From Candidatus Pelethousia sp. (GTDB taxonomy: Bacteria > Bacillota > Clostridia > Christensenellales > CAG-138), in NCBI GenBank assembly GCA_034933245.1, contig JAYFNX010000011.1:948-64947 (forward strand): a DNA stretch of 64,000 nt, in the 5' to 3' direction. Below are positions 244 to 35,498 of this stretch, piece after piece; positions within the stretch are counted from its first letter, which is position 1, and every line of letters starts with the position of its first letter. Both the position numbers and the translations under genes were made by a program. The notes beneath the pieces were generated by a model, which made no database searches, was not told the origin of the DNA, and saw only the letters and a program-made list of their open reading frames with translations.

Positions 244-1476
244 ATGCAACATATTCTTGGTTATAAGTGTACCCTTTGCGGTGCGGAATTTCCGTATACG
301 GAACGTATGACATGCCCTCGCTGTGGCGAAAAGGGCATTCTGGATATCATCTTTGACTATACATACATTAAAAAGCACTTGCTTTCCAGAGAAAGCCTGG
401 CGGAATGCCGCGACAACAGCATGTGGCGCTATAAAGCGCTGATGCCGCTAAAAGATCGCGACTTTTCGCCGTTTTTGCGCGTGGGCTGGACGCCGCTGTA
501 TCCTTCCCGCAGCCTGGTGAAGGAACTGGGACTGAAGGCTTTATATATTAAAGATGACGGCTTGAACCCCACGGCTTCCCTTAAGGACAGAGCTAGCGGC
601 GTGGCCGTAGCCAAGGCCGTGGAGCTCGGCTATGACACCATCGCCTGCTCATCCACGGGCAATGCAGCATCCTCCTGCGCAGGCAACGCGGCCCGCATGG
701 GTGTGAAAACGGTGATCTTTGTTCCCAGCCGCGCACCGGAAGGCAAAGTAGCGCAACTGATGATTTTCGGCGCAAAGGTGGTTTCGGTGCAGGGAGACTA
801 TAAAGCCACGTTTGATTTGAGCAAGGCCGCAATTGATAAATACGGCTGGTATAACCGCAACGCGGGCATTAACCCTATCCTCACCGAGGGTAAAAAAACC
901 GTGGCGCTGGAAATCGCCGAGCAACTGGCATGGGAACCCACGGACTGGGTCGCGTGCTCCGTGGGCGATGGATGCACCATTGGCGGCGTATATAACGGCT
1001 TCCACGACCTGTATGAGATGGGCTTTATTGAGCGAATCCCCAAAATTTTGGGCGTGCAGTCCACCGGATGCTGTCCCTTTGTGGATGCGGCCCGGGAAGG
1101 ACGGGATTTGGTGCCGGCAGAGGAGAACACCCTGGCGGATTCCATTGCCGTAGGTGTGCCGCGCAACCCCAAGAAGGCCCTGCGGGCGGTATCTGCTTCG
1201 GACGGCGCTTGGATCGCCGTGAGCGATGCGCAGATTTTGGATACTATGCGGCTGTTAGGCCGTACGGAGGGCGTATTTGGAGAGCCCGCAGGCGTAACGG
1301 CTACAGCGGGTGTGCGCCAGGCCGTAGCGGAGGGGATCATCAAACCGGGCGAAACCGTTACCACCATCAGCACAGGCAGCGGGCTTAAGGATGTTAAGAA
1401 CGCGCTGCGCGCCGCAGGTAAGCCTACCGCTTGCGAGCCGTCCTTGGAAGCCCTGGAGAAAAGCGGGATTCTATAA
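244..1476 (+). CDS. thrC: Threonine synthase-family PLP enzyme with N-terminal Cys4 zinc ribbon
   Basis: 410-aa ORF. It has CTLCG...CPRCG at the N-terminus, the PLP-lysine motif SLKDRAS, and SSTGNAA and SVGDG motifs of fold-type II threonine synthases. AAGAGG lies 7 nt upstream of the ATG. Confidence 0.8.
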   Translation: MQHILGYKCTLCGAEFPYTERMTCPRCGEKGILDIIFDYTYIKKHLLSRESLAECRDNSMWRYKALMPLKDRDFSPFLRVGWTPLYPSRSLVKELGLKALYIKDDGLNPTASLKDRASGVAVAKAVELGYDTIACSSTGNAASSCAGNAARMGVKTVIFVPSRAPEGKVAQLMIFGAKVVSVQGDYKATFDLSKAAIDKYGWYNRNAGINPILTEGKKTVALEIAEQLAWEPTDWVACSVGDGCTIGGVYNGFHDLYEMGFIERIPKILGVQSTGCCPFVDAAREGRDLVPAEENTLADSIAVGVPRNPKKALRAVSASDGAWIAVSDAQILDTMRLLGRTEGVFGEPAGVTATAGVRQAVAEGIIKPGETVTTISTGSGLKDVKNALRAAGKPTACEPSLEALEKSGIL

Positions 1477-1654
1477 TATATTTGCTAAGTATATGCTATC
1501 TGCCAGCCTTGAAAAAGGCAGGACGTTGTGATACGATAGGCTTTGTTCCGCTGACGGGTATATTCGAGTCCCCTTCGGCCCTCGGCGGAAAATATGGTTG
1601 CTACGCCCGAAGGGTGTAAAAATACAGCAACAAAAATCTAAGGAGGATTACCAA

Positions 1655-2971
1655 ATGAAGAAGTATCTTGCAATCGCGTTGGCGCTTGTAATGGTTCTGA
1701 CCATGGTAGCCTGCTCCAGCACGCCCGCCGCAGAGCCTGCTGCTGAGCCTGCCGCTCCCGCCGAGGCCACAGAGCCCGCTGCCGAGGCCACCGAGCCCGC
1801 CGCCGAAGCTGCCCCCGCTGGTTCCGTTGCCCGCGAGGCCCGGGAGCCCATTGCCGTGGCTGATCTGAAGATTGGCGTTATCCTTGTGCATGACGAGAAT
1901 TCCGGCTACGATATGGCGCATATCGAAGGCGTCAAAGGCGCTATGGCCAACTTGGGCATCAAGGAAGACCAGGCGATCTTCAAGTACAACATCCCCGAGG
2001 ATGAGACCTGCTACGATACCGCCGTGGATCTTGCCGAGCAGGGCTGCCAGATCATTCTGTCCGACAGCTATGGTCACCAGTCCCACATGATGGCTGCCGC
2101 CGCCGAGTATCCCAATGTCATTTTTGTGGCTTGCACCGGCGATACCGCTGCCATGGAGCCCGTAGCAAACGTGGCGAATATCTTCCCCTATACCTTCCAG
2201 AGCCGCTATGTATCCGGCGTTGTGGCTGGTATGAAGCTTAAGGAGCTTATGGATGCCGGCACCGTGACCGATCCTTACATCGGCTACGTGGGCGCTTATC
2301 CCTATGCGGAAGTGGTTTCCGGCTATACCGCGTTCTTCCTCGGCATCCAAAGCATCGTGCCCGAGGCTCATATGGACGTGCAGTATACCAACTCTTGGTA
2401 TGATCCGGTTGCCGAAGGCGAAGCCGCCAATGCTCTGATGAGCAAGGGCTGCGTCATCATTGGCCAGCATGCTGACTCCACCGGCGCTCCCGCGGCTGTG
2501 CAGGCTGCCCAGGATAGCGGAAAAGTCGTTTATAGCGTTGGCTATAATATCGACATGCTTTCCGTGGCCCCCAAGGCTGCTTTGACCTCCGCGCAGAACA
2601 ACTGGGTTGCCCTCTACACCCCCACCCTCAACAACATGATTACCGGCGAAGCCATGCCTGCCGATCTCGCGCTGGGCTATGCTGACGATGCGGTCATGAT
2701 TTCCGCGCTGGGCGAGAGCTGCGCTGAAGGCACTGCCGAGAAGGTAGCCGAAGTAATCGCTGCCCTCAAGGATGGCTCCCTGGAAGTGTTCAACACCGCT
2801 AACTTCACCGTGGGCGGCCAGGCTGTTACGACCTATCTGGCTCTGGATACCGATGGCGACTGGGTTGGTGACACCGGCGAAGCGATTGCCGATGGCATCT
2901 TCCACGAGTCCACCCTCCGCAGCGCGCCTTACTTTGGCCTGCGCATCGATGGCATCACCGAGCTCAACTAA
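1655..2971 (+). CDS. BMP-family (PnrA/Med-like) ABC transporter substrate-binding lipoprotein
   Basis: ATG at 1655 is preceded by AGGAGG (1641-1646). The signal peptide ends in the lipobox MVAC, followed by an Ala/Glu/Pro-rich linker and a BMP-type binding domain. The cognate ATPase and two permeases follow. Confidence 0.85.
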   Translation: MKKYLAIALALVMVLTMVACSSTPAAEPAAEPAAPAEATEPAAEATEPAAEAAPAGSVAREAREPIAVADLKIGVILVHDENSGYDMAHIEGVKGAMANLGIKEDQAIFKYNIPEDETCYDTAVDLAEQGCQIILSDSYGHQSHMMAAAAEYPNVIFVACTGDTAAMEPVANVANIFPYTFQSRYVSGVVAGMKLKELMDAGTVTDPYIGYVGAYPYAEVVSGYTAFFLGIQSIVPEAHMDVQYTNSWYDPVAEGEAANALMSKGCVIIGQHADSTGAPAAVQAAQDSGKVVYSVGYNIDMLSVAPKAALTSAQNNWVALYTPTLNNMITGEAMPADLALGYADDAVMISALGESCAEGTAEKVAEVIAALKDGSLEVFNTANFTVGGQAVTTYLALDTDGDWVGDTGEAIADGIFHESTLRSAPYFGLRIDGITELN

Positions 2972-2985
2972 CATCTAGTCCGAGA

Positions 2986-3020
2986 GAGAGAAGCAGCCTG
3001 TCTGCTTCTCTCTTCCTATC
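2986..3020 (+). terminator. Hairpin after the SBP gene (partial terminator or mRNA stabiliser)
   Basis: gagagaagcag / cctgt / ctgcttctctc followed by ttcct. Confidence 0.5.
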
Positions 3021-3152
3021 ACAATCCACGGCCTTCCGGCCGGCTCCCCTTTCTCACGGCCGGGAGCTTGATATGTTCCTGTAATTCTATTCGGCATCAT
3101 ATTAAAACACAGCTGCGGCCTTCTGGCTGCATGCATAGAAAGGACAATTGTT

Positions 3153-15113: not shown

Positions 15114-15151
15114 GGTTTGGCCCGGCACGCTTTTTGCGCACCGGGCCAAAC
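15114..15151. terminator. Bidirectional hairpin between convergent ABC ATPase and dut
   Basis: gtttggcccgg ... ccgggccaaac, T-rich on the plus side. Confidence 0.6.
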
Positions 15152-15655
15152 TTATTTCTCGCTGCTGCCAAGTTTTCCTCCGCCGCGCTCCGAGGCCATT
15201 GCGCAAAGGGCGTCGTAGGAAACCTCCCGCACTTCCGTTTTGGGCACGGGCAGAAGCACCATCTGGGCAATGGCTTTTTCCGCAGGATATAAAAGGCAGG
15301 CACCCGCGTCCACCTCGTCCGCCAAGCGTTTCCTGGCAGCAGGCTTGGCGATATACAGGGGTAGGTTGTTATGGTTGGTAACGGGAATAAACCACTCTCC
15401 CCGGTATCCGCTATCAATCACCCCACAGCGCTGGCCAATGCCTTGGGTTCCGGATGAACCACGCTCATGAATTTGAAAATAATAATCCGGCGAGCAGGCG
15501 CTTGCAATGCCGGTAGGCAGGGCGCGTGTTTCATGCGGGTCCAAGCGGAGCGCATCGTCCTCCAGGCGGATGTAGATATCATACCCCGCATCTTCCGCCC
15601 GTTTAGAAGGAAGAACGGCATCCGGCCGAAGTTTGGAAAAATAAAGGGTTTCCAT
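15152..15655 (-). CDS. dut: dUTPase module; may also be translated on its own from an internal start
   Basis: All five dUTPase motifs are present (AGYDIY, ERGSSG, GVIDSGYRGE, IAQMVL, RGGGKLGSS). The ATG at 15655 is preceded by AAGGAGG with a 5-nt spacer, but no stop codon separates it from the upstream XdhC frame. Confidence 0.6.
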   Translation of the reverse strand: METLYFSKLRPDAVLPSKRAEDAGYDIYIRLEDDALRLDPHETRALPTGIASACSPDYYFQIHERGSSGTQGIGQRCGVIDSGYRGEWFIPVTNHNNLPLYIAKPAARKRLADEVDAGACLLYPAEKAIAQMVLLPVPKTEVREVSYDALCAMASERGGGKLGSSEK

Positions 15656-16690
15656 AGGGCCTCCTTGTTTAAGATGGGTTTCAAATAGGACTTGCCCGGC
15701 CCGGTGTGCAATGAGCTCGGCAGCAATGCTGATGGCAATTTCCGCAGGGGTTTCCGCCAGGATAGGCAGGCCGATTGGGTTGTGAATGCGGCCAATGTCC
15801 CCTTCGGAGAAGCCGGCAGCCAAAAGCGCTGCACGAGTAGCGGCCATTCTGGAACGGCTACCGATGAGCCCGATGTACTGGGCGGGTGAGCGAAGGGATT
15901 GAGCAAGAACCGCGTGGTCCGCCGCATGCCCCCGCGTCATGATGACGATAGAATCCTGGGGCCGTAGGCGCAGCGTTTGTTCAAAAGAGGAAAAATCCCC
16001 CAAAAGAACCTTGGTTGCGCAGGGAAAGAGACGCTTTTGGGCAAACGCGGGCCTGTCCTCAAAAACAACGGGACGGAACTCCAAATGCGCCAATACGCGA
16101 ACGAGCTCTCGCGCAATATGCCCGCCGCCGAAAATATATACGTACCCCGAGCGAACCAGCGGGTTAAGAAAGAAGAAGGAATCGCTTTGTGTTTCCCAAA
16201 GCAACGGTGCCCTGCATGCAAGGGATTCCAATACAACCGGCAAGGGGTCGCCAAAGCGCAGTTGACCGTCCATTCCATATAGCCCCGCACGCCAGGAATC
16301 TCCAGGGCCAGCCTGTAAAGCCAGCCAAACATCCGCATCGTCCACAAGCGCAGAGGCTATCGCTTCAAAGAAAGGCGCTCGACTGGGCGCGCAATGCTGA
16401 AAGAAAATCCATACGCACCCCATATCCGGGGAAGAACCGCCCGCTGGGGGAGAGACGGAGAAGGAGCCGATAAAGGAGCGCCGCACCGCAAGGGCTTCCC
16501 TAGCTTTCTCCCCTGCCAAATGCTCCATAACGCCCCCGCCGATGGTGCCCACCGCTTCCCCGTTTTGCAGCAGAGCCATCATCGCCCCCGGGCCTCTTGG
16601 AACGGAGCCCTGGCTTTTTACCACGGTGCACAAAAGGGCCTCCCGGTCGGCCACAAGCTCTGCGGCCAGGGTTTGAAACAGCTTTTGCAT
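15152..16690 (-). CDS. XdhC/YqeB-like molybdenum-hydroxylase maturation protein fused in frame to dUTPase
   Basis: The N-terminal half has XdhC/CoxI motifs (VVKSQGSVPRGPGAMM, GTIGGG) and the XdhC Rossmann domain (YIFGGGHIAREL). The C-terminal 167 aa is the dUTPase. ATG at 16690 with GGGGAGG 5 nt upstream. The GTG at 16696 is too close to the SD. Confidence 0.8.
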   Translation of the reverse strand: MQKLFQTLAAELVADREALLCTVVKSQGSVPRGPGAMMALLQNGEAVGTIGGGVMEHLAGEKAREALAVRRSFIGSFSVSPPAGGSSPDMGCVWIFFQHCAPSRAPFFEAIASALVDDADVWLALQAGPGDSWRAGLYGMDGQLRFGDPLPVVLESLACRAPLLWETQSDSFFFLNPLVRSGYVYIFGGGHIARELVRVLAHLEFRPVVFEDRPAFAQKRLFPCATKVLLGDFSSFEQTLRLRPQDSIVIMTRGHAADHAVLAQSLRSPAQYIGLIGSRSRMAATRAALLAAGFSEGDIGRIHNPIGLPILAETPAEIAISIAAELIAHRAGQVLFETHLKQGGPMETLYFSKLRPDAVLPSKRAEDAGYDIYIRLEDDALRLDPHETRALPTGIASACSPDYYFQIHERGSSGTQGIGQRCGVIDSGYRGEWFIPVTNHNNLPLYIAKPAARKRLADEVDAGACLLYPAEKAIAQMVLLPVPKTEVREVSYDALCAMASERGGGKLGSSEK

Positions 16691-16946
16691 GCACACCTCC
16701 CCAAACGATTGCTTCTCCTATCATAGCACGAGGAAAAGAATTCGGGAAGGGACGCCGTAACCAGGGGTCCGCAACCAAAAGAATGGCTTATTGGAAGGGG
16801 TGCTATGAATATAAAAATACCGGCGCGAAAAACAGGGGCACAACTTTCCTTCCCGCTGCGATTACATGGCCCATTCCGCTTCGCAAACGGAACTGGAAAA
16901 AAGCAAACATGGTTTTAGGCGCTCCGCACCTGCGACCACCCTTTGC

Positions 16947-17681
16947 CTAAAAGAAGGGATAGACCGCTGCGTTAAACCAGCGATAGCCCAAGTCATATTC
17001 AGGCAGTATGTTTAAATCCATCAATAGGCCCGCCAGGCCCCAAAGCAGACCCAGAACGGCCATTAGGAGAAGAAATATAAACAACACGCCAAAAAAACGT
17101 TTGAAGGGGGAAGTTCGCCGGATAAGCGGCTCGTCATCCCAAACCGAATCCTCCTCGTCGCTGAAAAGGAGGGGTATGGAAGGGGACGAGGCAGGCGCCG
17201 CCTCCAGAGGGGGAGGGCTATCCTCTGTTTGTAAATCATCATCCGCCTCAAAATTCGGTTCGGAGGGGATGGCAAGGTCTTCACACGCCAAAACACAGGC
17301 CGTTGGCGAATCCTCCTCCACACAAGGGCCCGTGGGAACCTCTTTGGGAACTGGGGGCTGAAGGGGGCCCGCAGAACGCAAGACAGGCTGGGGCGACAAG
17401 GGAGGCAGCGGCTGTGCCGGCTTGGCCAAAGCCGCTTGGGAGGCCTGGGACCGGGCCAGGCTAATAAGCCAGTCCTCCATATCGGAGGGGGTATAACCCG
17501 CGGCAATGGATTGGAGGGCTTGGGTGAGAATTCGTTTTGAAAAGGCCGTGGCCTCCTCCGGACTTCCCAGGTAGGCAAGGCCTATATCCTGGACCGTATG
17601 GGCATATTGGACGATCCATGCCCGAATAGCATCGGCATCGCCTTTGCGCAAAGCAGCAAGGCGATCTTCTGATTGCTCCAT
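16947..17681 (-). CDS. Hypothetical membrane-anchored protein with sigma-70 region-2-like N-terminus
   Basis: ATG at 17681 with AAAGGGGGG upstream. The N-terminal 80 aa resembles ECF sigma region 2 (LRKGDADAIRAWIVQYAHTV...). A Pro/acidic low-complexity linker and one C-terminal TM helix follow. Confidence 0.55.
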   Translation of the reverse strand: MEQSEDRLAALRKGDADAIRAWIVQYAHTVQDIGLAYLGSPEEATAFSKRILTQALQSIAAGYTPSDMEDWLISLARSQASQAALAKPAQPLPPLSPQPVLRSAGPLQPPVPKEVPTGPCVEEDSPTACVLACEDLAIPSEPNFEADDDLQTEDSPPPLEAAPASSPSIPLLFSDEEDSVWDDEPLIRRTSPFKRFFGVLFIFLLLMAVLGLLWGLAGLLMDLNILPEYDLGYRWFNAAVYPFF

Positions 17682-17782
17682 GGCCGCGCCCCCCCTTTCG
17701 ACAAAATTCTGCACAAACAATTATATAGCTTTTCTGCCATTGCCGCAACGGAAAAGCCCGGATAAAGGGCAAGACAAACGCG

Positions 17783-17857: not shown

Positions 17858-18904
17858 TTATTTCACCCAGATAGTCGCCTCGCCTTGGGGAACGGCATGG
17901 CCGATAATCCGGCTCCAATCATTCTGCTCACCTAAAGCGGAAAGGAGACGGTCCGCATCCGATTCCGCAACGCTAATGAGCAGCCCGCCGGCAGTCTGCG
18001 GATCAAACATGAGATCCTGCAGGGCTAGCGGAACGGTTCCTTCAAAGCGAACTTTCTCTTCCATATGGCTGCGGTTACGGTACGCGCCTGCGGGGATAAT
18101 GCCCTCTTGCGCGAAATTCAGGGCATTTGGCATAAGCGGCAGATTTTCCGCCTGCAGGCATATGCTGACGCCGCTGGCCTGCGCCAATTCCTTTGCATGG
18201 CCTAAGAGGCCGAAGCCCGTGATATCCGTGCAGCCATGAACAGACAGCCCCGCCATGGCCTGCTGGGCGCCTGCGCTCAAGGTTGTCATAACCCGGATCA
18301 AAAACGCTTGTTCCGTTTCATCCAGCAAATCCGCTTTCGCTGCGGTAGTCAGGATGCCGCTTCCCAAAGGTTTGGTTAACACCAGCACATCGCCCGGGCG
18401 GGCCCCACTGTTGGCAAGAATCCGATCCGGATGGACAAACCCTGTCACAGAAAGGCCGTATTTCGGTTCCTTATCCTCGATGGTATGGCCGCCGCATAAG
18501 CAAGCGCCCGCCTCCGCCACCTTGCTGGCCCCACCTTCCAAAATGGCGCGAACATCCCGAGGCGGAAGCTTGTCCGAAGGGAAACAGAACAAATTTAACG
18601 CCAGCTTTGGGATGCCTCCCATGGCGTAAATATCGCTTAAAGCATTGGAAGCCGCTACCTGGCCAAAGGAATAAGGATCATCCACCATAGGCGGAAACAA
18701 ATCCACTGTTTGGATGAGAGCGAGATCATCGCTCACTCGATATACGGCTGCATCGTCGCTGGTTTCCATCCCCACCAGCAGGTTGGGATCGGAAATCCGG
18801 GGCAGCCCGGTTAGCATATTCTCTAGGACGCCCGGCCCTATTTTGGCAGCTCAGCCGCCACAAGAGGTCATTTTGGAGAGGTAAATCTTTTCTCCGCTAG
18901 ACAT
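17858..18904 (-). CDS. selD: Selenide, water dikinase (selenophosphate synthetase), Sec-containing form
   Basis: The ORF track begins at 18817. Upstream in frame it reads MSSGEKIYLSKMTSCGG-UGA-AAKIGPGVLEN, which is the SelD N-terminal loop with UGA at the catalytic Cys/Sec position. AAGGAGGG lies 7 nt before the ATG at 18904. Confidence 0.9.
18851..18853 (-). other. In-frame UGA selenocysteine codon of selD
   Basis: TGA is read on the minus strand, three codons before the conserved Lys (U-A-A-K versus C-G-C-K in E. coli SelD). Confidence 0.85.
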
Positions 18905-31869: not shown

Positions 31870-32724
31870 TTGCGAGTCAATACCTATTATAAACCCGCTA
31901 CCTTGCGGGAAGCATTGGTTTGTATGCGGTCCGGTGGTATCGTAAAAGCGCTTGCCGGCGGAACGGATTTGATTATCGAAATGAACGGAGGAAAGATTGC
32001 GCTGGATGCGCTGGTGGATCTTTCCGCTATATCCGAACTTAAGAACATAGAAGCCAGAGAAGACGGGCTGCATGTGGGCAGCATGGCCACCTTTTCGCAA
32101 ATCGCCAGCAGCGCGCTTGTGCAAAAAATATGCCCTATGCTCGCCGAAGCGGCTGCGATGGTGGGCTCGACCCAGGTGCGGAACAGTGGCACCATTGGAG
32201 GAAATCTGGCAAATGCGGCGACGGCGGCGGATACGGTTCCTGCGTTAATGGCTGCCGACGCCGTTGCGGTCATCAAGAACGCGGAAGGGATGCGCGTTCT
32301 GCCGGTAACCAATATTCCGACCGGGCTGAATACCACATGCCTCGCGGCGGACGAGCTGATTTTTGAGTTAATCATACCCCGGCATACGGGCTGCTTCATG
32401 GCTTTTGAAAAGATTGGACGGCGCAAAGCGCTTGCCATTTCCCGCATTAATATGGGCCTGTTGCTTGAAATGACCGGCAGCACCATTGCGCGCGCTGCGG
32501 TGGCTTACGGAGCGGTGGGAAAAACAGCATACCGCGTAACGGAGCTGGAGACGTTCCTGGAAGGGAAGCAACTCGACGAGGCCTTGATCAAACAGGCGGG
32601 AGATCTGGCGGAAAAAATCGTTACGGAAAAGCTTGCCGGAAGAAAGACCACGCCATATAAACGAAAGATTGCGGCGGCGGTGCTACGGCGTGCGCTTACC
32701 AGGGCGAATGGAGGTGCTGTGTAA
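31870..32724 (+). CDS. Molybdenum hydroxylase FAD-binding subunit (CoxM/XdhB/NdhF type)
   Basis: 284 aa, TTG start with GAGGAG 9 nt upstream. FAD-binding motif LAGGTDLI and TIGGNLAN. Confidence 0.85.
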   Translation: MRVNTYYKPATLREALVCMRSGGIVKALAGGTDLIIEMNGGKIALDALVDLSAISELKNIEAREDGLHVGSMATFSQIASSALVQKICPMLAEAAAMVGSTQVRNSGTIGGNLANAATAADTVPALMAADAVAVIKNAEGMRVLPVTNIPTGLNTTCLAADELIFELIIPRHTGCFMAFEKIGRRKALAISRINMGLLLEMTGSTIARAAVAYGAVGKTAYRVTELETFLEGKQLDEALIKQAGDLAEKIVTEKLAGRKTTPYKRKIAAAVLRRALTRANGGAV

Positions 32725-33189
32725 ATGGTACGCAAGATGACATTCGAAATAAACGGGCAGAACTATACTGTGGAAGTTGACCCTTCCATGCGCCTGTTGG
32801 ATCTCATCCGGGATGTGATTGGCCTTACGGGAACAAAAGAGGGCTGCGCCGAAGGGGAATGCGGCGCCTGCACCGTGATTCTGGACGGGGAAGCCGTTAC
32901 GAGTTGCCTTGTGCTGGCAGGCCAAGCCGAAGGCCATTCGATCATCACCATCGAGGGCGTTTCTCAAAACGGCGAGCTTACCAGGCTCCAGCAGGCTTTT
33001 GTGGATTGCGGCGCGATCCAGTGCGGCTTTTGCACGCCGGGCATGATTCTCTCGGCAAAGGCGCTGCTGGATAAAAACCCTCATCCCACGGACGATGAAA
33101 TCCGCACGGCAATTTCGGGCAACCTGTGCCGCTGCACAGGGTACGTAAAAATTGTGGACGCCGTTAAAAAGGCGGCCCAGGAGGAGTGA
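32725..33189 (+). CDS. Molybdenum hydroxylase 2x[2Fe-2S] subunit (CoxS/NdhS type)
   Basis: 154 aa. CAEGECGAC and QCGFCTPG...CRCTGY cluster motifs. Confidence 0.9.
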   Translation: MVRKMTFEINGQNYTVEVDPSMRLLDLIRDVIGLTGTKEGCAEGECGACTVILDGEAVTSCLVLAGQAEGHSIITIEGVSQNGELTRLQQAFVDCGAIQCGFCTPGMILSAKALLDKNPHPTDDEIRTAISGNLCRCTGYVKIVDAVKKAAQEE

Positions 33190-33192
33190 GCC

Positions 33193-34488
33193 ATGATACC
33201 GACCTCTGAATTCAAAGTAGTAGGAAAGCGGGAAGTCAGGAAGGATTCGCTGCCAAAAGCAACCGGGGCGGCCCGTTATGCGGCGGATATTAAAATGCCC
33301 GGCATGCTGTGCGGGAAGGCGCTTCGGAGCGAATATCCGCATGCGAAGATCCTATCTATCGATACCGATGCGGCCAAGGCGATGCCCGGCGTGCATGCGG
33401 TGCTTACAGCCAAAGATATCCCTGGTATCAATAAGTTTGGCCTGGCAATCGCGGACCAGGAGGTATTGGCCAGCAAAAAGGTGCGCATGATGGGCGACGC
33501 CGTGGCGCTCGTTGCCGCGGAAACGCTGGAGCAGTGCGAGGCCGCACTTCGCCAAATAAAGGTGGCGTATCAGGAATTGCCGGGGGTATTTTCCATTGAG
33601 GACGGCATCAAGGAAGGCGCACCCCTTGTGCATGAAGATGTGCCGGGCAACCTTCTTCAGCATACCATGGTGCGCAAGGGCGATGTTAGCACCGCGTGGG
33701 CGGACTGTGCCTATATTGTGGAAAACGACTATACCACCCAGCGCGTGGAACACGCCTATATCGAACCGGAGGTAGCGGTGGCATACATCGATACCATGGG
33801 CGTTATGAACGTGCTCAATTCAACGCAATATACGTTCCGGGACAGAAGGCAAATTGCCCCGGTCATCGATATGCCGCATAACATGGTGCGGGTGCAACAG
33901 CAGACGACAGGCGGCGGATTCGGCGGAAAAGATGACATCACCTGTGAAATTCAGGCGGCTTTGTTGGCGCTGAAGACAGGGAGACCCGTGAAGGTGGTAT
34001 GGACCCGCAGCGAATCCATGGCCTGCTCCACGAAGCGGCACCCCATGAAAATCCACGTTAAGACCGGATGCGATAAAAACGGAAAATTGCTGGCCATGGA
34101 AGGAACCGTCTATAGCGATAAGGGTGCGTATTGCTCCATCGGCCACTTTATTACCAAAAAAGCCGGGCTGCACCTTGCGGGCCCCTATTATATTCCAAAC
34201 ATTTGTGTGGATACGTATAGCATCTATACCAATAACACAATCTCCGGACCGTATCGTGGGTTCGGAATTCTACAGTCTGCCTTTGCGCACGAATCCCAGA
34301 TGGATCAGCTTGCCGACCTTGTCGGTATGGATCCGCTGGAATTCAGACTTCTCAATTGCCTGAAACATGGGTTATCCACCGCGACAGGACAGGTGTTCAC
34401 CCAGGGCGTGGGGTTTGAGGATACGCTACTGGCCATGAAAGAATATATGGGTGAGACAGACCTGTATGGCGAGGAGGGAGATCAATGA
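33193..34488 (+). CDS. Molybdopterin-binding subunit, N-terminal chain (NdhL-like)
   Basis: 431 aa with an a/b-hammerhead domain plus the first Mo-pterin domain (GGGFGGK motif). It ends at a TGA overlapping the next start (ATGA). Confidence 0.85.
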   Translation: MIPTSEFKVVGKREVRKDSLPKATGAARYAADIKMPGMLCGKALRSEYPHAKILSIDTDAAKAMPGVHAVLTAKDIPGINKFGLAIADQEVLASKKVRMMGDAVALVAAETLEQCEAALRQIKVAYQELPGVFSIEDGIKEGAPLVHEDVPGNLLQHTMVRKGDVSTAWADCAYIVENDYTTQRVEHAYIEPEVAVAYIDTMGVMNVLNSTQYTFRDRRQIAPVIDMPHNMVRVQQQTTGGGFGGKDDITCEIQAALLALKTGRPVKVVWTRSESMACSTKRHPMKIHVKTGCDKNGKLLAMEGTVYSDKGAYCSIGHFITKKAGLHLAGPYYIPNICVDTYSIYTNNTISGPYRGFGILQSAFAHESQMDQLADLVGMDPLEFRLLNCLKHGLSTATGQVFTQGVGFEDTLLAMKEYMGETDLYGEEGDQ

Positions 34489-35498
34489 AAAAACGCGGAC
34501 GCGGAATAGGATGCAATCTTTATGGTGTGGGCTATGGCTTCAGCCGGCCGGACCATTCCGCCGCTACGGTGGAGGTCGCGGACGACGGCACTGCCACCGT
34601 ACTTTCCGGGGCATGCGATATTGGGCAGGGTTCGGATACGGCGCTTTGCCAGATCGCTGCGGAGGAACTGGGTATTCCCTATACGAATGTGCGCATTGTT
34701 AGCGCGGACACGGCCTTTACGCCGGATGCGCTTGCCAGCACCGCAAGCCGCGAAACCTTTGTTTCGGGCCGCGCCGTGCAGCTTGCCGCCAAGGATGCCA
34801 AAACGTATCTTCTCAAATATGCAGCGGAGCTTCTCAACTGTTCCCAGGAGGAGCTGGATGTAAGAGCCAACGCAGTGGTTTCGTCCAGGAATCCGGAAAT
34901 TACCATGCCGTTCCCCGAGCTTTGCGCGCTGGCGCATAATAACGGGAGACGGTTCATTGGGTTTGCTTGGTATGATAACACCACGAAGGATGTGGACCAT
35001 GATACCAACCAGGGGGATGCCTATGCCACTTACATTTATGCGACCCAGGTGGCGGATGTGGAAGTGGATACCGAGACAGGCGATGTAACGGTTTTAAGGG
35101 TAGGCGCAGCCCACGATGTTGGCCGCGCAATCAACCCCATGATGGTGGAGCAACAGGTGGAGGGAGCCGTTCTACAGGGCATGGGGTATGGAATTATGGA
35201 GGAAGTTATCCTGGATAAAGGGCACACGCTGACGCCCAACTTCTCCAAATTCCTCATACCAACCGCAAAGGATGCGCCGAGGATAAAAACCTACATTGTG
35301 GAGTCCGATGTGGGACGCGGGCCTTTTGGGGCAAAGGGCGTAGGGGAAGGGGCCATCATACCGACCGCCGCGGCGGTGGTAAATGCCGTAAACAATGCCA
35401 TAGGCGTGCGCATTCGGGAGTTGCCGATCACACCGGAAAAGATATTGGCTGCCCTTGAAGAAAAAGAAAAAGCGACGCAGCAAGAAGGTAAAAAGTAA
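34485..35498 (+). CDS. Molybdopterin-binding subunit, C-terminal chain (NdhM-like)
   Basis: 337 aa containing the second half of the aldehyde oxidase/xanthine dehydrogenase Mo domain (DIGQGSDT, GVGEGA). It is in a different frame from the L chain. Confidence 0.85.
   Translation: MKKRGRGIGCNLYGVGYGFSRPDHSAATVEVADDGTATVLSGACDIGQGSDTALCQIAAEELGIPYTNVRIVSADTAFTPDALASTASRETFVSGRAVQLAAKDAKTYLLKYAAELLNCSQEELDVRANAVVSSRNPEITMPFPELCALAHNNGRRFIGFAWYDNTTKDVDHDTNQGDAYATYIYATQVADVEVDTETGDVTVLRVGAAHDVGRAINPMMVEQQVEGAVLQGMGYGIMEEVILDKGHTLTPNFSKFLIPTAKDAPRIKTYIVESDVGRGPFGAKGVGEGAIIPTAAAVVNAVNNAIGVRIRELPITPEKILAALEEKEKATQQEGKK

Follow-up and report, generated by a model that had tools for sequence, protein, structure and literature searches.

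A likely stop-loss fusion of the operon neighbours xdhC and dut in a species of Candidatus Pelethousia

A single open reading frame (ORF) in Candidatus Pelethousia sp. joins an XdhC-family protein to a dUTPase in one polypeptide. It lies in a window of 64,000 nucleotides (GenBank assembly GCA_034933245.1, contig JAYFNX010000011.1, positions 948 to 64,947), which is the whole stretch analysed and to which coordinates refer unless another contig is named. The ORF listing gives one open frame at 15152..16696 on the minus strand, 514 amino acids counted from a GTG. The ATG at 16688-16690 agrees with the MQKLF N-terminus present in all relatives, and counted from it the fused xdhC-dut frame (15152..16690, minus strand) has 512 codons and ends with a TAA stop at 15152-15154. 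The GGAGG Shine-Dalgarno (SD) sequence of xdhC (16696..16700, minus strand) sits 5 nt upstream of this ATG. An earlier note, made from the letters alone, had described one uninterrupted 512-codon frame holding an XdhC/CoxI N-domain, a Rossmann domain and a dUTPase; the ORF listing and the translation confirmed the frame from 16690, and all three domains scored above their Pfam cut-offs. All parts of the frame are on the minus strand. The XdhC moiety, as delimited by Pfam, Foldseek and the lengths of the congeneric proteins, comprises residues 1-336 (15683..16690), with XdhC_CoxI at 16475-16651 and the XdhC_C Rossmann domain at 15713-16141. Then come a GAA codon, Glu337 (15680..15682), 24 nt now read as THLKQGGP (residues 338-345, 15656..15679), and the dut moiety of 167 amino acids (residues 346-512, 15155..15655), which begins with an ATG of its own (15653-15655) and is matched by the Pfam dUTPase model at 15344-15613.

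In the XdhC half, both family domains occur in the usual order, XdhC_CoxI (PF02625) at residues 14-72 with 58.3 bits against a cut-off of 24.3, and XdhC_C (PF13478) at residues 184-326 with 136.7 bits against 29.7. The NCBIfam models scored lower: NF045664 (XdhC_rel_AOR) gave 245.9 bits, under its cut-off of 350, and TIGR02964 (xanthine_xdhC) gave 117.9 bits, under 161.6. Since these equivalog cut-offs were missed, the protein can be placed in the family, but its client enzyme cannot be named. The label 'YqeB-like' used in the earlier note found no support in the NCBIfam scan (E ≤ 0.01), which returned two XdhC and two dut models only, with the presence of a YqeB model in the release unchecked. 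An AlphaFold2 model of the fusion, resting on a 31-row alignment, was confident across the XdhC domain (predicted local distance difference test, pLDDT, of 80-97 for most of residues 1-300), and Foldseek matched this half to the XdhC-family structures 2WE8_A (E = 2.5e-22) and 3ON5_A (E = 9.9e-21) over about 350 columns, with 2WE7 also among the matches. The half therefore resembles the XdhC/CoxI chaperones of molybdenum-cofactor insertion (Rhodobacter capsulatus XdhC, E. coli PaoD, and the structures 2WE7/2WE8 and 3ON5) in both Pfam domains and in fold. It differs from them in its C-terminal dUTPase, in its sub-cut-off NCBIfam scores and in one motif. After the N-domain, 225 of 246 retrieved XdhC homologues and all six congeneric ones carry xMxCGG, mostly as GMICGG or GMVCGG; residues 89-94 of the fusion (16409-16426, minus strand) instead read DMGCVW, with a deletion of two residues, and the model is uncertain at residues 85-88, just at the altered motif. 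Because about 8% of members are without CGG, xMxCGG does not formally define the family.

The dUTPase half matched PF00692 at residues 360-449, scoring 41.3 bits within the fusion; residues 346-512 searched alone gave 46.0 bits (cut-off 22). Motifs III and IV are separated by an insert of about 30 residues (residues 439-471; 15278-15376, minus strand), on account of which the match covers no more than profile positions 5-92 of 129. As dUTPase motifs are generally defined, all five canonical ones are present, as the earlier note had said: AGYDI (368-372), RGSS (410-413), GVIDSGYRGE (423-432), AIAQ (473-476) and RGGGKLGSS (502-510). Motif III keeps the catalytic Asp426 and the sugar-gating Tyr429, motif IV keeps its Gln, and motif V deviates in having Leu instead of the more common Phe (GKLGSS in place of GFGS(T/S)G). 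Both NCBIfam dut models were missed (TIGR00576, 58.2 bits against 102.55; NF001862, 55.5 bits against 103). The insert and GKLGSS also occur in the free-standing Dut of the congeners and in that of G024, a genome of another genus in the same family. This Dut belongs, together with the free-standing Dut of the congeners, to a divergent subfamily.

Foldseek, run on a moderately confident model of this half, gave a probability of 1.0 to the dUTPases of feline immunodeficiency virus (FIV), Mycobacterium tuberculosis, E. coli, human and phages, and it matched the XdhC and dUTPase halves to known structures separately. In sequence the FIV enzyme was the top match in the PDB. Alignments of the half with the FIV, M. 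tuberculosis and E. coli enzymes cover motifs I-III and motifs IV-V; the only PDB entries to which it aligns over its whole length are the dUTPases of the staphylococcal phages 80alpha and phi11. The latter bear an extra motif between motifs III and IV, the same place as the insert here. With the homotrimeric dUTPases of E. coli, M. tuberculosis and phages 80alpha/phi11 the Dut half thus has the five motifs and the fold in common, and a homotrimer is predicted for it as well; unlike them, it is read in frame behind 345 residues of XdhC and linker, carries GKLGSS as motif V and falls under the NCBIfam cut-offs. The earlier note had asked whether another dut exists in the genome. A profile search for both dUTPase classes (PF00692 and PF08761) in this 98.8%-complete genome found the dut half as the sole match, and in the congeners G002 and G006 the split dut is likewise the single dUTPase. 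These results mark it as the housekeeping Dut of the lineage and not a prophage extra.

The DNA across the junction reads CAA GTC CTA TTT GAA ACC CAT CTT AAA CAA GGA GGC CCT ATG. The SD sequence AAGGAGG (15660-15666) lies within the 24 nt that precede the dut ATG, four bases separating the two, so the ribosome-binding site and start codon that had been pointed out at the junction are there. The linker had been given as 12 residues; by the position of the stop in relatives it is 9 residues long, Glu337 plus THLKQGGP. Residues 335-368, which contain it, have a pLDDT below 50. A consensus promoter scan for an internal dut promoter gave 2 promoter-like sites where 1.2 were expected, and the RNA fold around the junction, which might hide or expose the SD, was no better than that of shuffled sequences (z = 0.15).

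The question of an assembly error was judged by comparing independent assemblies. If the open frame were an artefact of sequencing or assembly, the true genome would separate xdhC from dut by a stop codon or a 1-nt indel. The genome is a draft of 65 contigs, and the alternative reading frame across the linker contains a TGA and a TAA, both of which fit such an error. However, a 29.9-kb Logan contig re-assembled from SRR27243495 encodes the identical 512-amino-acid protein, with 1 mismatch in 4,815 nt relative to the window. The 90% cluster of the fusion has two members, and the second, NCB30533.1, comes from another metagenome-assembled genome (GCA_009929065.1, contig SABH01000073.1). It is identical to the window protein at 504 of 512 positions, without gaps and with an identical linker. 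Along this 6.9-kb contig, 57 of 6,926 positions differ from the window, with one gap in addition (99.16% identity), which marks GCA_009929065.1 as another strain of this species. In the fusion gene itself the two strains differ at 22 nucleotides, 14 synonymous and 8 non-synonymous, with no indels. The ratio of synonymous to non-synonymous changes is 9:5 in the XdhC part and 5:3 in the Dut part; the counts are small, and they are compatible with purifying selection on both parts. The second strain and the re-assembly, both with the same frame, point to a real allele at the level of the species. Together with a linker DNA in which the longest homopolymer is 3, they make an artefact very unlikely, and the sense codon aligns codon for codon with the stop of the relatives, so that no indel is required. 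We give almost no credence to the artefact, which the available assemblies have already refuted for the most part.

The related genomes display the split state. Our genus sample consisted of eight species representatives, the species of the window included, and the other seven are labelled G001-G007. In six of these seven, xdhC and dut are adjacent and co-oriented, but separate, genes. The XdhC proteins are 336-340 amino acids long, the free-standing Dut proteins share 78-82% identity with the dut half of the fusion, and the gene order (a gene for a 257-amino-acid protein, xdhC, dut, then a convergent gene for an ATP-binding cassette (ABC) transporter ATPase) is common to these genomes and the window. 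Between the two genes lie one or two stop codons and a spacer of 12-41 nt with an SD sequence. In G002, G005 and G007 dut is out of the xdhC frame, 19-41 nt past the stop; in G003, G004 and G006 it is within the xdhC frame, from which it is parted by one TAA (G003), by a TAA and a TAG (G004) or by one TAG (G006). Several lineages of the genus are thus one or two mutations away from a fusion. Seven further xdhC-dut loci on metagenome contigs all had a stop or stops between the genes. The seventh congener, G001, has no xdhC-dut pair and carries a dUTPase of the dimeric type (PF08761, 75.9 bits; in the stretch G001:C21:2979-6221), suggesting that the type of dUTPase has been exchanged within the genus. 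The earlier note had taken the locus for two adjacent genes lacking the intervening stop, and the arrangement xdhC-stop-SD-ATG-dut at the same position in the relatives bears this out. The note had also weighed against a genuine fusion the case in which close relatives keep separate genes and the fusion is unique to this assembly; the first part applies, and the second does not, as the second strain and the re-assembly share the fusion. A search for XdhC-Dut fusions in related genomes, which it had proposed, turned up that second strain of the same species, the congeners being split.

In the XdhC tree the species of the window is sister to the group of G002, G003 and G006 (Shimodaira-Hasegawa-like approximate likelihood ratio test support, 87). 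The ninth codon after the conserved His of the HRA motif is TAA in G002, TAA in G003, TAG in G006 and GAA in the species of the window, so one T-to-G change at the stop position of the sister clade is sufficient for the fusion. From this alignment we infer that the stop was lost in a single base event. The spacer of 24 nt is a multiple of three and free of stops, and it is consequently read as THLKQGGP up to Met346. An origin of the fusion by frameshift was considered and ruled out, for the sense codon stands exactly at the relatives' stop and an indel is unnecessary.

Taken together, these data make it likely that stop loss has recently joined two operon neighbours, in this one species, into a translational fusion, xdhC-dut, whose effect is most likely neutral or close to it. 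The ancestral locus would have had an xdhC ending in TAA or TAG, a short spacer bearing an SD sequence, and the ATG of a housekeeping dut. In the species of the window the stop would have become GAA, for which one T-to-G substitution is the simplest route, and ribosomes starting at 16690 would run through the in-frame spacer to give an XdhC-linker-Dut protein of about 56 kDa. The internal SD and ATG appear to be the ancestral start signals of dut; being unchanged, they would probably also give a free 18-kDa Dut by internal initiation. Two products, the fusion and free Dut, are therefore the most likely output predicted from the sequence, in line with the earlier note, which had held that both could be made. 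Free XdhC, by contrast with free Dut, cannot be obtained from the fused gene. Both moieties would be expected to stay active, because the linker is predicted to be flexible, the motifs are intact and other trimeric dUTPases tolerate N-terminal extensions, and Dut activity is likely kept in the fusion, possibly in mixed trimers.

Several known systems are comparable. The E. coli genes infB (IF2 alpha/beta), clpB and cheA (long/short) each yield two in-frame products by internal initiation, an in-frame internal SD and ATG giving a long and a short product with a common C-terminus, and the same is possible in xdhC-dut; unlike in those genes, the internal start here would be the remnant of a once-separate gene, and the products are predicted. 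The fused his genes hisIE and hisNB arose when the stop between operon neighbours was lost. They are alike in that co-oriented neighbours with a short spacer became one frame and that the split state is found in relatives. They join enzymes of one pathway, however, and are kept over large clades, whereas xdhC and dut have unrelated functions and are fused in one species. Retroviral fusions and extended human isoforms indicate that trimeric dUTPases are tolerant of N-terminal additions. The betaretroviral nucleocapsid-dUTPase and the Pol-embedded dUTPase of FIV (1DUT/1F7D) tolerate N-terminal partners, as proposed for xdhC-dut, although they stand in the context of a viral polyprotein and have no relation to XdhC.

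Several points weigh against this explanation. The internal start may not be used while ribosomes translate through it from xdhC, and a protein in which a dimer-forming XdhC is joined to a trimer-forming Dut may not fold properly. The loss of xMxCGG may mean that the expectation of two active halves is wrong for XdhC. Only two clearly distinct strains carry the fusion, too few to establish that it is fixed across the species, and the support for the allele comes from assembled DNA.

The altered motif also bears on whether the XdhC part is decaying. The genome holds a second, unfused XdhC (contig C46:26483-27532, minus strand; 1462-2490, minus strand, of the examined stretch of C46) of 342 amino acids, 41% identical, full-length and with GMICGG intact, whose gene is downstream of a Mrp/NifX-like gene. 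Among the genus members searched it is found in this genome only: no counterpart turned up in the six congeners with xdhC-dut, and G001 has a distant partial XdhC match only. The changed motif and the second protein allow the fused copy to be read as under relaxed constraint after the second, canonical XdhC took over, the frame then acting essentially as a dut with a long, dispensable leader peptide and the loss of the stop being one sign of the decay; DMGCVW and the two-residue deletion are present in both strains. On the other hand, neither strain has a disrupted 336-codon XdhC frame, synonymous changes in it outnumber non-synonymous ones, and the Pfam scores and pLDDT of its domains are high. 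These features speak against outright decay of xdhC, and the share of homologues naturally without the CGG motif takes weight from its loss. When relative rates were compared between XdhC and Dut, no clear acceleration specific to XdhC emerged; the XdhC and Dut trees place the species of the window differently, and under a common topology both of its branches are similarly long. We consider such decay unlikely.

We searched for the same pair of domains elsewhere at large scale. When 5.8 billion protein clusters were searched by word-indexed HMMER, with scoring on residues 300-512 and candidate lengths of 282-896 amino acids, no protein with XdhC and dUTPase came up beyond the query's own cluster, and the remaining long dUTPase matches had unrelated extensions. 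Among 1.84 billion representatives, searched exhaustively with phmmer, there were 17,852 matches; none of the best 150 covers both halves, distant fusions below about 185 bits being out of view. In these searches the fusion did not recur in independent lineages, as it formed one species cluster of two members while 13 related loci were split. The XdhC-dUTPase architecture was thus not met elsewhere in the databases searched. Our literature search found no publication naming both XdhC and dUTPase, and on stop-loss fusions it returned nothing directly useful.

The absence of the architecture elsewhere bears on whether the protein is an adaptation, a bifunctional one in which a Dut trimer scaffolds three XdhC units or in which a moonlighting, regulator-like Dut controls molybdenum-cofactor insertion. 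The genus-wide adjacency of xdhC and dut would agree with such a role, as would the retention of the fusion in two strains, between which synonymous changes are the more numerous (14 against 8), and an insert in Dut at the site of the extra motif of phage Dut proteins, the only ones with which it aligns over its full length. Against these stand the fact that a single mutation separates the fusion from the ancestral state and that it is limited to one species, the lack of any further such protein in very large searches and of any publication that names both partners, and a linker that is merely translated spacer. Moreover, in G024 a Dut of the orthologous type (55% identical, with the same insert) comes after mazG and hup and not after xdhC, and G001 is without the pair. 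We hold an adaptive bifunctional protein to be distinctly improbable. The proposal that the fusion itself is selected, with XdhC on a trimeric Dut core, or on a moonlighting, regulator-like Dut with a phage-type insert, altering cofactor delivery to the neighbouring molybdenum hydroxylase or with expression of the sole dUTPase coupled to the pathway, strikes us as highly doubtful; if it were true, the genus-wide adjacency would be a real functional tie. No evidence for selection on the fusion itself was seen. The earlier note had known of no link between dUTPase and the maturation of molybdenum hydroxylases, which agrees with an adjacency that ends at the genus boundary: genes other than dut come after xdhC in other genera, and xdhC-dut adjacency is confined to the genus. 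No evidence for a functional link between molybdenum-cofactor maturation and dUTP hydrolysis was found, and on present evidence the locus gives no new tie between that pathway and nucleotide sanitation. Most likely the fusion arose by accident and is tolerated, and is not a functional coupling.

As a tolerated stop-loss fusion, xdhC-dut offers a clean, datable case of a new bacterial multidomain protein, with the split and the fused states visible within one genus. As it involves the genome's only dUTPase, the organism tolerates part or all of that enzyme being tethered to a 38-kDa partner. The protein can now be annotated properly as an XdhC-family protein fused to Dut; the second strain's record calls it a 'hypothetical protein'.

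The fused gene closes a selD-containing operon on the minus strand, in which the order is a YedE-like transporter, a TusA-like protein, a DUF3343 selenium/sulfur carrier, selD, the 257-amino-acid protein and then xdhC-dut. The gene for the 257-amino-acid protein (16947-17720, minus strand) has no Pfam match at E ≤ 1e-5 and is conserved upstream of xdhC in G005 and G007, with 36-40% identity. For selD (17861-18904, minus strand) to encode 348 amino acids, the in-frame TGA at 18851-18853 (codon 18, SCGGUAAK) must be decoded as selenocysteine; without this the ORF is called from the Met at 18817, and the second strain's record has a 348-amino-acid selD gene call. Directly after the stop of the fused frame, between the convergent dut and ABC-ATPase genes, lies a GC-rich hairpin of 16 bp (15115..15151, minus strand; −33.7 kcal/mol, z = −5.85). 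It is without a clear T tract and probably marks the end of the operon. About 15 kb from xdhC-dut, on the plus strand, 31870-35498 encodes a four-subunit molybdenum hydroxylase with flavin (FAD), 2Fe-2S and split MoCoBD subunits, which is a plausible client of XdhC.

In G022, from another genus of the family, a 480-amino-acid frame at xdhC was considered as a second fusion and rejected, as the frame is merely extended at its N-terminus and the gene is followed by an overlapping gene for a 192-amino-acid P-loop protein, not dut. That P-loop nucleoside triphosphatase gene (2520-3098, plus strand, of the examined stretch of contig C36) overlaps the xdhC stop, and its product may be an accessory protein of the molybdenum hydroxylase system. 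Among the dUTPases met in the searches, a group of 285-417 amino acids from AT-rich metagenome contigs carries long N- or C-terminal extensions of unrelated sequence, among them one with a 5'-nucleotidase-like domain (PF06941), and the group looks phage- or plasmid-borne.

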